Origin: a virus
Lineage: Duplodnaviria; Heunggongvirae; Uroviricota; Caudoviricetes
Reading direction: 5' to 3' (one strand)
IMG/VR virus record: IMGVR_UViG_2541047431_000017
DNA: 17,376 nucleotides
In this document: positions 10,823 to 16,113 of the stretch, one piece after another
How the letters are laid out: every line of letters starts with the position of its first letter
Position numbering within the stretch: the stretch's first letter is position 1
Made by a program: the position numbers and the translations under genes
The notes under the pieces: model-generated
Database searches by the model: none
Seen by the model: the letters and a program-made list of their open reading frames with translations, nothing else
What the model was told of the DNA's origin: nothing

Positions 10823-11545
10823 ATGCTTAATACTGTAAAAATATCCAGTTGTGAGTTAATCAACGCCGACTGCCTGGAATTTATGCGGTCGTTACCCGAA
10901 AATTCTGTTGACCTGATAGTCACGGACCCGCCGTACTTCAAAGTGAAACCCGAGGGCTGGGATAACCAGTGGGCGGGTGATGAAGATTACCTGAAGTGGC
11001 TGGACCAGTGTCTTGCGCAGTTCTGGCGGGTGCTGAAACCTGCCGGAAGTCTTTACCTGTTCTGTGGCCATCGTCTGGCATCTGACACCGAAATCATGAT
11101 GCGTGAGCGGTTTAACGTGCTGAACCATATCATCTGGGCAAAGCCGTCCGGACGCTGGAACGGGTGCAACAAGGAAAGCCTGCGGGCGTATTTCCCCGCC
11201 ACAGAGCGCATTCTGTTCGCAGAGCATTATCAGGGGCCGTATCGTCCGAAAGATGCCGGGTATGAGGCGAAGGGTAGGACACTGAAACAGCATGTGATGG
11301 CCCCGCTGATTGCTTACTTTCGTGATGCGCGCGCTGTCCTGGGGATAACGGCAAAACAGATTGCAGATGCCACAGGAAAGAAAAACATGGTGTCGCACTG
11401 GTTCAGTGCCGGTCAGTGGCAGCTGCCGAACGAAAGCGATTATCTGAAATTACAGGCACTGTTTGCCCGGGTGGCAGAAGAGAAGCATCAGCGGGGTGAA
11501 CTGGAAAGCCCCACCACCAGCTGGTGGATACGTATGCCTCTCTGA
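10823..11545 (+). CDS. DNA methyltransferase (amino-MTase), N-terminal portion; gene apparently frameshifted
   Basis: DPPY catalytic motif (VDLIVTDPPYF). The frame ends at 11545 while the downstream ORF, in another frame, carries the AdoMet motif. Confidence 0.7.
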   Translation: MLNTVKISSCELINADCLEFMRSLPENSVDLIVTDPPYFKVKPEGWDNQWAGDEDYLKWLDQCLAQFWRVLKPAGSLYLFCGHRLASDTEIMMRERFNVLNHIIWAKPSGRWNGCNKESLRAYFPATERILFAEHYQGPYRPKDAGYEAKGRTLKQHVMAPLIAYFRDARAVLGITAKQIADATGKKNMVSHWFSAGQWQLPNESDYLKLQALFARVAEEKHQRGELESPTTSWWIRMPL

Positions 11546-11880
11546 ACCGACAGTATGCGGAGCTGCAGAGTGAATATAAGCATCTGCGGCGGTATTTCGG
11601 TGTGACGGTGCAGGTGCCGTACACCGATGTGTGGACGTATAAACCGGTGCAGTACTATCCAGGGAAACATCCGTGCGAAAAACCGGCAGAAATGTTGCAG
11701 CAGATAATCAGCGCAAGCAGTCGTCCGGGAGACCTGGTTGCAGATTTCTTCATGGGGTCGGGGTCGACAGTGAAAGCAGCGATGGCGCTGGGACGTCGTG
11801 CAACTGGCGTTGAACTGGAGACTGAACGTTTTGAGCAGACGGTGCGGGAAGTACAGGATTTAATCATTCGTAACGGATGA
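11524..11880 (+). CDS. DNA methyltransferase, C-terminal portion (AdoMet-binding FxGxG motif)
   Basis: Motif DFFMGSGST. This frame is open from 11500 and has only a GTG at 11524, so it reads as the continuation of the upstream ORF after a frame change between about 11500 and 11545. Confidence 0.7.
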   Translation: MDTYASLNRQYAELQSEYKHLRRYFGVTVQVPYTDVWTYKPVQYYPGKHPCEKPAEMLQQIISASSRPGDLVADFFMGSGSTVKAAMALGRRATGVELETERFEQTVREVQDLIIRNG

Positions 11881-11920
11881 GATTGCGGAGTTAATCATGC
11901 GTCGTTATTATTCAGCAATC

Positions 11921-11996
11921 GGCCCTTTAGCTCAGCGGTGAGAGCGAGCGACTCATAATCGCCAGGTCGCTGGTTCAAATCCAGCAAGGGCCACCA
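11921..11996 (+). tRNA. ileZ: tRNA-Ile2-like (anticodon CAU, ileX/ileZ type)
   Basis: Cloverleaf folded by hand: acceptor GGCCCTT/AAGGGCC, D-arm GCTC/GAGC, anticodon loop CTCATAA, T-arm GCTGG-TTCAAAT-CCAGC, encoded CCA. Close to E. coli ileX as I recall it. One A-C mismatch at the top of the anticodon stem. Confidence 0.8.
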
Positions 11997-11997
11997 A

Positions 11998-12063
11998 CCG
12001 CCACTAGCTCATCAGGAAAGAACGTCACCCTGTGCGAGATTCGGAGTCCCCGGTGGCGGTCCA
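11998..12063 (+). other. tRNA-like remnant (possible degenerate argN-type tRNA)
   Basis: Perfect 7-bp acceptor-like pairing (CCGCCAC / GTGGCGG) followed by T-CCA, but only 66 nt and the internal arms do not fold into a clean cloverleaf. Confidence 0.3.
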
Positions 12064-12076
12064 TTATCGGTATTCT

Positions 12077-12153
12077 GCGTTGTTAGCTCAGCCGGACAGA
12101 GCAATTGCCTTCTAAGCAATCGGTCACTGGTTCGAATCCAGTACAACGCACCA
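12077..12153 (+). tRNA. argO: tRNA-Arg (anticodon UCU)
   Basis: Acceptor GCGTTGT/ACAACGC, D-arm GCTC/GAGC, anticodon arm ATTGC-CTTCTAA-GCAAT, T-arm ACTGG-TTCGAAT-CCAGT, encoded CCA. Confidence 0.85.
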
Positions 12154-12471
12154 CACCACACTTATCTGCCCTGACTCTCTTTTGCGGGCTTTTTATTACA
12201 GGAAAGACACCGGACAGTGAAATGTTAAATGCCTCACAATTCAGGCAGTTGACTGTTGCCTGACATGCTGAGCGTTTGTTAAAAAAATCCTGCATGATGA
12301 ATCCCCCTGAGCGGCGGGGCATAATGACAGATGTTTGGTTGCGTATTGTATAGGCAAGTTGCGGATTCTGTCTGGTCATTGCAGAATTCACCGGGAGGCA
12401 CCCGGCATCATGCTGTATACAGAGATTAGGCATATATCCAGGCTTCTCATCGCAGGAGCCTTTTTACATGC

Positions 12472-12497
12472 AAAAAAAAGCCCGAGTGGGTTCGGGC
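12472..12497 (-). terminator. terminator-like hairpin oriented for the minus strand
   Basis: A8 run then GCCCGA-gtgggt-TCGGGC on the + strand, i.e. hairpin plus U-tract when read on the minus strand. Confidence 0.35.
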
Positions 12498-12557
12498 AAC
12501 AGCATGAGATACTTGCATTGTCATTTTTATCGTGTGGATTTTAACCAGGGTTTATAA

Positions 12558-14527: not shown

Positions 14528-14800
14528 TAAAAAAAGCCAGCGACTGACCTGAAAGAAGACGCTGGCTAAAAGGCCTTATATGTTTGTAGAGACTTATTTT
14601 TCACAGACAGCAATGATGCCTGTCAATATATTATCAATATGCGGATTGTTTCAGTTACAGATGCTTTATTAAGGAAAAAAACAGCCAGCACTGACTTTCG
14701 GTGGAGAGGTGCTGGCTCAAAAGGATAGATGTACTTCACATGTTGCTTCTATATGGCAGTACATTTTCTGACAGACAGTGACGGATGTTGTCAAGATATT
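14527..14800. repeat. degenerate tandem duplication of a hairpin-containing unit of about 140 bp
   Basis: Two units each start with an A-run and a 7-9 bp GC-rich hairpin (14536-14566; 14661-14695) followed by aaaagg. Downstream parts align at about 70 percent (tcacagacagcaatgatgcctgtcaatatatt vs tctgacagacagtgacggatgttgtcaagatatt). Confidence 0.45.
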
Positions 14801-14891
14801 GTGTCATTTATAACCTGAATCGGGGGAGGCCGGAATGTTATCTGGCATTTTTAGCAGAGCCTGAATGCCATAATCACGGCTCCCGGCGTTG

Positions 14892-14928
14892 GCCGTCAGT
14901 GGGTGACACTGGCGGCTTTTTTGTTTTC
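14892..14928 (+). terminator. intrinsic terminator immediately upstream of the holin gene
   Basis: GCCGTCAGTG-ggtga-CACTGGCGGC (one mismatch) followed by TTTTTTGTTTT. Confidence 0.5.
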
Positions 14929-14972
14929 CTTTACTTTCATTTTCTGTCGGCGGTGACGGAGACATACACCAG

Positions 14973-15180
14973 ATGGAAAAAAATCACAACGGGTGTGTCA
15001 TACACCACGTCAGCGGTGGGGACGGGATACTGGTTACTGCAGCTGCTGGACAAAGTCTCTCCGTCCCAGTGGGTGGCGATAGGCGTGCTGGGGAGTCTGC
15101 TGTTTGGGCTGCTGACATATCTGACGAACCTGTATTTCAAGATTAAAGAAGACCGGCGTAAGGCGGCGCGGGGAGAGTAA
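14973..15180 (+). CDS. holin (Stx-phage S-type, about 70 aa), start codon out of frame through an A7 tract
   Basis: The hydrophobic frame ([66 protein letters not shown]) ends at 15180. The only SD-preceded ATG (14973, GGAG 10 nt upstream) is in another frame and is joined to it through AAAAAAA at 14977-14983. Confidence 0.6.
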
Positions 15181-15184
15181 AGTG

Positions 15185-15406
15185 ATGAAGAAAAAATACG
15201 AACTGGTTGTTAAAGGGATAAATAATTACCCGGATAAGATTACTGTTACTGTGGCACCGGAAATTGGTGGGTATCCGTCACTGTTGTTGCCAGATGTGGC
15301 GATTAGTCTTGACCGTACTGAAGGTGCCACGCTGGAGTTTTACGAAGCTGAGGCGAAAAAGCAGGCGAAGCAGTTTTTTCATGGATGTTGCTGCCGGGTT
15401 ATGTGA
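15185..15406 (+). CDS. small hypothetical protein between holin and endolysin
   Basis: ATG at 15185 with a GGGGAG SD. 73 aa. Overlaps a second small ORF (ATG 15380, ending 15530) in another frame across a T6 run. Confidence 0.35.
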   Translation: MKKKYELVVKGINNYPDKITVTVAPEIGGYPSLLLPDVAISLDRTEGATLEFYEAEAKKQAKQFFHGCCCRVM

Positions 15407-15580
15407 AGGGGATGGTCCGTTACCGGAAAAGCGTCCCGTAATTTTAGAGGCGCAGGATGTGTTGATAACCTACAGAGGAAAACTACCGGGAATAATTACG
15501 GGTTCTCTGAAGACTCCACCGCTGGCCTGAAGACTTAACATATCCAGGGATTTGAAATCGATAAACCCTGATAAATATCC

Positions 15581-15781
15581 ATGAACGCAAAAATCAGATA
15601 CGGCCTGTCGGCTGCCGTTCTGGCGCTGATTGGTGCAGGGGCGTCTGCGCCTGAAATCCTCGACCAGTTTCTGGATGAAAAGGAGGTAACCACACCACAG
15701 CATACCGTGATGGTGCGGGTATCTGGACCATCTGCCGTGGAGCCACCCGGGGGGATGGTAAGCCTGTTATTCCTGGCATGA
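15581..15781 (+). CDS. endolysin (lysozyme R-type), N-terminal fragment; gene frameshifted
   Basis: MNAKIRYGLSAAVLALIGAGASAPEILDQFLDEKE matches the signal-anchor N-terminus of Stx-phage R endolysins as I recall them. After about residue 35 the frame no longer looks lysozyme-like. Confidence 0.6.
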   Translation: MNAKIRYGLSAAVLALIGAGASAPEILDQFLDEKEVTTPQHTVMVRVSGPSAVEPPGGMVSLLFLA

Positions 15782-16113
15782 AGCTGTCGAAGGAAAAATG
15801 CGACCGGGTTAACGCCATTGAGCGTGATAAGGCGCTGGCATGGGTGGAGAAAAACATCAGAGTGCCGCTGACCGAACCCCAGAAAGCGGGGATCGCGTCA
15901 TTCTGTCCGTACAACATTGGCCCCGGTAAGTGTTTCCCGTCGACGTTTTACAGACGGATTAATGCAGGAGATCGAAAAGGTGCCTGCGAAGCGATTCGCT
16001 GGTGGATTAAGGACGGTGGCAGAGACTGCCGTATTCGTTCAAACAACTGTTACGGTCAGGTATCCCGTCGTGACCAGGAGAGCGCGCTGGCGTGCTGGGG
16101 AATCGACAGATAA
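15679..16113 (+). CDS. endolysin, C-terminal portion in the -1 frame
   Basis: Frame open from 15679 (GNHTTAYRDGAGIWTICRGATRGDGKPVIPGMKLSKEKCDRVNAIERDKALAWVEKN...ACWGIDR). First ATG is at 15778, which is the ORF-track start. Contiguous lysozyme homology across the break point. Confidence 0.6.
   Translation, partial: KGGNHTTAYRDGAGIWTICRGATRGDGKPVIPGMKLSKEKCDRVNAIERDKALAWVEKNIRVPLTEPQKAGIASFCPYNIGPGKCFPSTFYRRINAGDRKGACEAIRWWIKDGGRDCRIRSNNCYGQVSRRDQESALACWGIDR

Follow-up and report, generated by a model that had tools for sequence, protein, structure and literature searches.

A known methyltransferase pseudogene and three probable artefacts among four frame changes in a prophage contig of E. 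coli O157:H7 B93

The window analyzed here (17,376 nt) is the whole of contig AVRE01000016.1 from the draft genome of E. coli O157:H7 strain B93, and it spans the early, regulatory and late-lysis region of a paa-carrying lambdoid prophage. All features described below lie on the plus strand. The downstream part runs from a beta-class N6/N4 DNA methyltransferase (10823..11880) through two phage tRNA genes (11921..12153) and a carbohydrate esterase (12677..14527) to a 434-bp spacer (14534..14967), followed by holin (14973..15180), ydfR/DUF1327 (15185..15530), lysozyme (15581..16113), antirepressor and Rz; the order from holin to Rz is the same in relatives. The tRNA genes in the methyltransferase-esterase interval were identified by ARAGORN, and by PGAP in relatives. 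The first (CAT) was called tRNA-Met by ARAGORN and tRNA-Ile by PGAP, and the second is a tRNA-Arg (TCT).

Further upstream, an IS629/IS1203-like element of the IS3 family (1310 bp, 3681..4990) interrupts a DUF1627 gene. The IS insertion named in the original prediction, which was made from the sequence alone, is real, as shown by its junctions, its TTAC target duplication and the same insertion in strain B94. B93 and B94 come from one household and have 0 core SNPs between them (PMC4928038). The element is identical in the two strains, a 135-aa junction ORF was found on these two contigs only, and the insertion marks the B93/B94 clone. An apparent SNP at 4990 proved to be the end of the IS element and involves no substitution.

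When the window was aligned to eight relatives, namely the intact paa-prophage of O157:H7 SS NE 1040-1 (L001, the alignment reference) and seven others, four genes showed exactly one single-base indel apiece, and one-base repair of each gene gave full-length matches to PF01555 (methyltransferase), PF04971 (holin), PF07041 (ydfR) and PF00959 (lysozyme). The alignments and restored Pfam matches agree with the earlier claim that methyltransferase, holin and endolysin are each one single-base indel from intact. A possible fourth frame change had been suspected at a T6 run; it is present in the ydfR sequence, since the one-base repair restores the PF07041 match, and the relatives have T5, although the run lies at 15374-15379, one base on from the proposed 15373-15378. 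Several changes had been placed at homopolymers, and in the intact form three of the four lesions do fall in runs of 4 or more bases, the lysozyme lesion falling in a 2-mer. Programmed frameshifting or transcriptional slippage was considered and rejected because no homologue keeps an out-of-frame arrangement: those of holin, ydfR and lysozyme are all single-frame, and the methyltransferase is intact in most genomes.

The methyltransferase lesion is a 1-bp deletion (GGAAAAGCC->GGAAAGCC) that shortens A4 to A3 (run 11505-11507) and splits the gene into a 240-aa ORF (10823-11545) with the DPPY motif and a 118-aa ORF (11524-11880) with FxGxG. After repair, the 352-aa protein matched PF01555 over profile positions 1-219 of 221 with 149.1 bits (cut-off 26.7) and contained both DPPY (IVTDPPYF) and FMGSGS, as expected of a full-length N6_N4 DNA methyltransferase; as encoded, the two motifs stand on separate ORFs. 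With its catalytic DPPY part severed from the FxGxG part that binds AdoMet, the enzyme is presumably inactive.

This lesion has a wide and coherent distribution. The A3 allele was matched at 100% in 26 complete genomes (57 bases tested), and the intact gene is the majority form (1,120 of the 1,146 genomes having the locus), the median copy number of the locus being one. The 240-aa product, including its frameshifted tail, was found exactly on 98 contigs among complete genomes, NCBI and Logan (assemblies of public read runs). The same lesion in the same prophage context occurs in the complete genomes AP026114.1 and CP044148.1, the drafts B7-2, EC1734 and strain 1125 also carry it, and PGAP labels the gene 'frameshifted' in F3398 (FEL04_RS11855). 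Furthermore, the B94 methyltransferase is identical to that of B93, lesion included. Alignments, Pfam matches and allele distribution thus identify a genuine pseudogene, and A4->A3 is a true inherited mutation of an O157:H7 sub-lineage. Recurrence of a lesion in independent assemblies with such a coherent distribution was found for the methyltransferase only and not for holin, ydfR or lysozyme, all three of which alignments and genome searches suggest are probable artefacts.

The class II (phage 21 S-type) holin carries A6->A7 at 14977-14983, two codons past the ATG at 14973, and the depositors called a 75-aa ORF from a GTG at 14953. The repaired 68-aa holin matched PF04971 at full length and above the gathering score (112.8 bits, cut-off 26; profile 1-63 of 64). 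This repaired protein occurs on 845 contigs; the B93 contig is the only one with the 75-aa call. With a 100-bp query against 5,426 complete E. coli genomes, the A7 form had no exact match in 8,179 places in 2,400 genomes, the best reaching 99.0% with one gap; a 61-bp query returned no match, probably due to its flanks of <28 bases and low-complexity masking. For ydfR, the private additional T gave zero full-length exact matches at 3,435 places in the 5,426 complete genomes. Its 73-aa product was found on the B93 contig alone, and the repaired 114-aa protein (PF07041, profile 1-92 of 93) on 661 contigs.

The lysozyme, which has a hydrophobic N-terminus, is split into 66-aa and 111-aa ORFs by a 1-bp deletion (GGAAGG->GGAGG at 15683/15684). 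None of 4,116 places in the 5,426 complete genomes reached 99% to the GGAGG form, and the repaired 177-aa protein (PF00959, profile 2-125 of 125) was found on 631 contigs. The 66-aa product was recovered from B93 and the draft DEC4F only; DEC4F shares the identical deletion on a different allele, which could mean a real mutational hot spot and not a systematic error. All three lesions were absent from the eight aligned relatives, and every relative with the methyltransferase frameshift has A6, T5 and GGAAGG at the other three sites. The lesions are therefore private to one assembly, with the exception of the lysozyme deletion shared with DEC4F.

Comparison with the sister isolate also bears on these sites. 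The two contigs, of B93 and B94, agree at every base from 1 to 12987, and all differences in their alignment lie beyond this point: 21 substitutions, a swapped 434-bp spacer and the holin run. The B94 holin is intact, with A6, and directly contradicts the A7 of B93. The B94 contig stops just after the holin and direct alignment covers this gene but not ydfR and lysozyme, whose truncated products were not found in B94's annotated assembly from the same collection. A B94 contig with ydfR and lysozyme was not found using the 90-aa methyltransferase call or a 44-aa ORF.

The esterase-holin-ydfR-lysozyme module is present in 5-13 near-identical copies per O157:H7 genome, and the holin, ydfR and lysozyme sites accordingly have 5-13 places per genome versus one for the methyltransferase site. 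By allele painting and Pfam, the SASA/DUF1737/DUF6645 esterase is in frame and intact, but from 12988 onward it is a fine mosaic of alleles of at least three paralogous prophage types, and its 616-aa protein occurs on AVRE01000016.1 only. The 434-bp spacer between esterase and holin, delimited by breaks in homology at 14533/14968, is of another prophage type: it matches at 99.2% a second prophage in 28RC1, EC4115, TW14359 and strain 272, which in clade-8 genomes is located apart from the methyltransferase locus, whereas the paa-prophage spacer of B94 and complete relatives is shorter and unrelated.

Over 12600-16200, three paralogue types together account for every substitution, the donor changing at least 10 times within 3.5 kb, and the indels in holin, ydfR and lysozyme were alone in having no donor among them. 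Between 14968 and 16022 these three indels are the sole differences between the window and the copy L002, and private events in the whole 17.4 kb amount to three indels and zero substitutions. All three thus lie in a multi-copy, demonstrably chimeric consensus. Intergenic indels at 14534 and 14821 relative to L001 were considered as further errors and dropped, both being exact matches to the second-prophage type (L017/L018); a 2-bp difference at 14551 matches L001.

The sequencing group's pipeline used Illumina reads, or an Illumina plus 454 FLX/XLR 3-kb hybrid, with Celera assembly, and its hybrid drafts comprise about 47-71 contigs (PMC3593324). The B93 draft has 50 contigs and an Illumina-only reassembly 236. 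From this contig count and the stated pipeline we infer that B93 was assembled with Celera from 3-kb-insert 454 and Illumina reads. Illumina reads in a hybrid assembly should fix 454 run-length errors, a point against the artefact reading unless those reads had been left out or were ambiguous within the repeat, and a 2-mer such as that in the lysozyme is an atypical site for a 454 error. The authors of the B93/B94 study themselves noted that lambdoid phages hinder assembly (PMC4928038). Private 1-bp indels were also observed in other drafts of this module: B94 with its own A6->A7 (esterase), EC1734 with C4->C3 and GG->G in the lysozyme, B7-2 with 1 bp deleted from the esterase, and DEC4F with T4->T3 in addition to the lysozyme deletion. 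No such indel separated two complete genomes from each other.

Taken together, these sequence comparisons suggest that the window holds one known inherited pseudogene, the methyltransferase, and three artefacts, in holin, ydfR and lysozyme, a reading we consider likely (probability about 0.85). The three indels are private, contradicted by the sister isolate or represented there by no truncated product, set in chimeric sequence, and repaired by one base to known proteins. The holin +A, ydfR +T and lysozyme -A would then most likely be missing from the bacterium's own DNA. The consensus of the module was probably assembled from reads of several paralogous prophages, giving a chimeric sequence, with 454-type run-length miscalls overlying it. 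The choice between decay and sequencing error posed in the original prediction was the right question, but its answer differs by gene: decay for the methyltransferase, probable artefact for the three lesions private to the B93 draft contig. The prediction's advice to hold pseudogene calls was sound. Given the private lesions, the A6 holin of B94 and the chimeric multi-copy region, the picture of a decaying lysis cassette with multiple hits is unsupported, and the methyltransferase frameshift alone is too little to establish a decaying cryptic prophage.

That all four lesions are genuine is very improbable; on this view slippage at short runs would have struck the lysis cassette of a decaying cryptic prophage three times, after an older methyltransferase frameshift and in addition to the IS629 insertion. 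The lesions do stand in the deposited sequence, homopolymers are natural sites of slippage, DEC4F has the same lysozyme deletion, and the prophage has real defects: besides the methyltransferase frameshift and the IS insertion it carries a fimbrial pseudogene, and the portal gene is frameshifted in relatives. However, neither the 5,426 complete genomes nor any relative carrying this prophage has any of the three lesions. In B94, at 0 core SNPs from B93, the holin is intact and the truncated products of ydfR and lysozyme are missing. In addition, three private indels with no private substitution are unlike a natural mutation spectrum, a dead holin would leave no selection for two more hits, and the flanking sequence is demonstrably chimeric. 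The narrower claim, that slippage left B93 itself with a triple-hit, lysis-dead cassette, is quite improbable; if it were true, the holin A6 tract and the endolysin GGAAGG would be natural hot spots for turning off prophage lysis.

Alternatively, the indels might be true lesions of a different, decayed prophage paralogue in B93, from which they were imported into the chimeric contig. In favour of this, alleles of at least three paralogue types are mixed in the late region, and the 434-bp spacer derives from the second prophage type of the same clade-8 genomes. Yet A7, T6 and GGAGG were found in none of thousands of paralogous copies, including those of clade-8 EC4115, TW14359 and 28RC1, the substitutions all have donors while the indels have none, and B94's annotated assembly is without the truncated products, which makes this origin very improbable. 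Finally, the idea that all four changes are sequencing errors, suggested by the homopolymer length change in the methyltransferase as well, is refuted by the distribution of that allele across 26 complete genomes produced in many laboratories on many platforms, by PGAP's 'frameshifted' label, by the Logan assemblies and by the identity of this single-copy locus in B94.

Under our preferred reading of one inherited pseudogene and three probable artefacts, the value of the analysis is mainly in quality control, as three of the four apparent pseudogenes here should not count as biology. Public protein database entries that rest on the B93 contig alone and are probably non-natural include the 75-aa holin (WP_032293549.1) and the 616-aa mosaic esterase (WP_021498623.1), and the 66-aa lysozyme and 73-aa YdfR fragments likewise probably do not exist in nature. 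Draft contigs of this kind would mislead inferences on prophage inducibility or on the phage gene content of outbreak isolates. The methyltransferase frameshift, already annotated in complete genomes, can be used as a lineage marker.

Among known systems, the closest to the methyltransferase is the F3398-type pseudogene (FEL04_RS11855), which is the same gene in the paa prophage context, with the A3 allele and the same frameshifted product as B93; the gene is no different, and the B93/B94 prophage adds the clone-specific IS629 insertion. The other three lesions resemble 454 run-length errors and collapsed repeats in O157:H7 drafts in being indel-only, mostly at runs and private to one draft, in a module with 5-13 copies, disagreement within the same clone and differing private indels in other drafts. 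The lysozyme lesion departs from random run-length noise in its 2-mer site and its identical recurrence in DEC4F, and the B93 platform is itself deduced from the contig count and pipeline. Once repaired, the cassette resembles the phage 21 type: its holin is a full-length match to PF04971, 'Bacteriophage P21 holin S', its lysozyme matches PF00959, and the hydrophobic N-terminus of the latter (MNAKIRYGLSAAVLALIGAGASA) presumably resembles a signal-anchor-release domain. It differs from the phage 21-type arrangement (class II holin S21, membrane-tethered lysozyme, Rz/Rz1) in having ydfR (DUF1327) and an antirepressor interposed, and its 68-aa holin does not have the upstream Met present in the 71-aa dual-start form of L002-type copies.

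The window was identified as one entire contig, AVRE01000016.1 (17,376 bp), of the draft assembly of Escherichia coli O157:H7 B93 (GCA_000462425.2). B93 is a human isolate (Missouri, 2005; clade 8.32, stx2a) that forms an intra-household pair with B94, with no SNP between the two (PMC4928038). The contig spans the section of the paa-carrying lambdoid prophage of O157:H7 that holds its immunity, replication and late-lysis genes. According to the annotation of its relatives, the gene order is cI/cro-like, O/P-like, DUF1627, paa, hokD, DUF968, rusA and Q-like DUF1133, after which come a DNA methyltransferase, two tRNA genes, a SASA-family esterase, class II holin, ydfR, lysozyme, antirepressor and Rz.

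When the window was aligned with eight relatives, among them SS NE 1040-1 with its intact prophage, exactly one single-base indel emerged in each of four genes: A4 to A3 in the methyltransferase (run 11505-11507), A6 to A7 in the holin (14977-14983, two codons past the ATG at 14973), T5 to T6 in ydfR (15374-15379) and GGAAGG to GGAGG in the lysozyme (15683/4). Reverting one base per gene restored full-length Pfam matches (PF01555, PF04971, PF07041 and PF00959). The alignment bears out the original prediction that the methyltransferase, holin and lysozyme are each one single-base indel from being intact, and the remainder of its lesion description is accurate; the fourth frame change it proposed at a T6 run is present in ydfR, but the run lies one base away from where it had been placed. 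Of the two causes offered for these frame changes, prophage decay or sequencing error, we find a mixture, with genuine decay at the methyltransferase but most likely artefacts at the other three genes.

The exact 240-aa methyltransferase product with its frameshifted tail occurs on 98 contigs from NCBI and Logan public-read-run assemblies, complete chromosomes among them. Complete genomes AP026114.1 and CP044148.1 carry the same lesion inside the same paa prophage, and 26 complete genomes match the A3 allele at 100% over a 57-bp query across the run, the locus having a median of one copy per genome. The B94 contig is identical to B93 at this lesion, and NCBI's pipeline (PGAP) labels the gene 'frameshifted' in strain F3398. 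Judged by these comparisons, the frameshift is genuine and inherited, and the pseudogene was already known, being annotated in complete genomes. Since the lesion divides the protein between its DPPY and FxGxG motifs, loss of methyltransferase activity would be the likely consequence.

Genuine lesions were also observed elsewhere. An IS629/IS1203-like element of 1310 bp (3681-4990), flanked by a TTAC target duplication, interrupts the DUF1627 gene and was found at this position in none of the retrieved complete genomes. Its junction ORF (135 aa, 4932-5339) occurs on just two contigs in the protein collection, those of B93 and B94 (AVRF01000018.1), so the insertion site is a marker of the B93/B94 clone. 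A fimbrial-protein pseudogene (5505-6038) contains several in-frame stops and may be the region in which an amber codon had been noted; because all complete relatives carry the PGAP label 'frameshifted; internal stop' on the same gene, it is an old and genuine lesion of this prophage. In EC4115, a second prophage type (L018, 5187-6093) breaks off inside ydfR, with a partial major capsid gene joined on immediately, a genuine large deletion of the lysozyme and terminase region that exemplifies real decay of the lysis module in a closed genome.

The frameshifts in the holin, ydfR and lysozyme appear, with a probability of roughly 0.85, to be artefacts of sequencing or assembly, in a repeat that is collapsed and chimeric. 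All relatives with the methyltransferase frameshift (L002-L006, L008 and L009) have A6, T5 and GGAAGG at the three sites. Site-spanning queries searched against 5,426 complete E. coli genomes gave no exact match to any of the three lesion sites: the top match for the holin site was 99.0% with a one-base gap (8,179 places), the top full-length match for ydfR was 98.3% (3,435 places), and 0 of 4,116 places reached at least 99% for the lysozyme. A search of ~15 billion proteins placed the truncated YdfR (73 aa) and lysozyme (66 aa) products, like the 75-aa holin called by the depositors, on the B93 contig and nowhere else; the one-base-repaired YdfR, lysozyme and holin are exact proteins on 661, 631 and 845 contigs, respectively.

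All variable sites of 12600-16200 were painted against three sequence types: the paa-prophage (B94, L002 and F3398), a second prophage at another position in the same clade-8 genomes (28RC1 and EC4115; also TW14359 and strain 272), and the intact SS NE 1040-1 type (L001). A donor was found for every substitution, with at least 10 donor switches in 3.5 kb, and O157:H7 genomes hold 5-13 places for the holin, ydfR and lysozyme sites versus one for the methyltransferase site. This pattern of alleles marks the contig's late region as chimeric. Because only the three lysis-gene indels were without a donor, private events over the whole contig amount to three indels and no substitutions, all three inside a 707-bp stretch of multi-copy sequence; the 88 homopolymers of at least 5 bases in 1-12987 are all unaffected. 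Set against this tally, real private mutations of B93 are improbable. Real lesions of another paralogous copy, brought in via the chimera, would suit the mosaic late region but are less probable still, no donor for the three indels having been found in any of the painted types. The B93 contig is the sole RefSeq source of the 616-aa B93 esterase (WP_021498623.1) and of the 75-aa holin (WP_032293549.1), and both are probably assembly products, not natural proteins.

The B93 and B94 contigs are identical over window 1-12987, including the IS629-like insertion and the methyltransferase lesion. From 12988 they diverge (window 12988-14967 versus 14598-16293 of the B94 contig): the esterase gene differs by 21 substitutions, and where B93 has its 434-bp spacer (14534-14967), B94 has a shorter spacer of unrelated sequence. 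B94 reads A6 in the holin and encodes the complete 71-aa protein, and its esterase has a private A6 to A7 frameshift of its own (14743-14749 of that contig). Such divergence within 3 kb is implausible for two isolates without core SNPs, and at least one of the two assemblies is therefore wrong beyond 12987. At the paa prophage, a short spacer of the B94/L002 type and an esterase free of mosaicism would be expected.

Illumina-only Velvet assemblies from the same group comprise hundreds of contigs, and their hybrid Celera assemblies (Illumina plus 454 FLX/XLR 3-kb reads) ~47-71 (PMC3593324; PMC4928038). As the B93 deposit has 50 contigs (5.52 Mb) versus 236 in an Illumina-only reassembly, we infer that it belongs to the hybrid class, which would fit the artefact reading. 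Private 1-bp indels that split the esterase or the lysozyme occur in other drafts of the module as well: C4 to C3 and GG to G in the lysozyme of EC1734 (L008, 10813 and 10895), a 1-bp deletion in the esterase of B7-2 (L004, 8390), and, in DEC4F (GCA_000249475.2; L014, 1237 and 3025), T4 to T3 in the esterase together with the same GGAAGG to GGAGG lysozyme deletion as in B93, on an allele just 93% identical. This recurrence is the sole observation that fits poorly with random error; it suggests a true hot spot or else a miscall that is systematic in this sequence context. Against all other relatives, VIFR01000004.1 (44 gap positions) and VXJN01000001.1 show many scattered 1-bp indels prophage-wide, which look like uncorrected long-read error and add caution to taking frameshifts here at face value.

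With three of its lesions private and the region chimeric, the contig does not show the multiply hit, decaying lysis cassette that had been proposed. O157:H7 carries many further lambdoid prophages whose lysis cassettes are intact. Neither the apparent pseudogenes of the contig nor its mosaic esterase and the holin with the altered N-terminus should be carried over into annotation.

Two holin start architectures were observed among the paralogues (window 14953-14975; L002 9858-9870), with an upstream Met present in a 71-aa form (L002 and B94) and missing from a 68-aa form (L001, L017 of the second prophage type, and the window), a difference that may reflect whether a copy makes the dual-start antiholin described for phage 21 S. 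Between 9703 and 14527, the Q-like DUF1133 gene is followed by a small ORF, the methyltransferase, tRNA(CAT), tRNA-Arg(TCT), ~520 bp of non-coding sequence and the SASA esterase, a layout that we take to mirror the Q-tRNA-stx-esterase order of Stx-converting phages, minus the stx genes.
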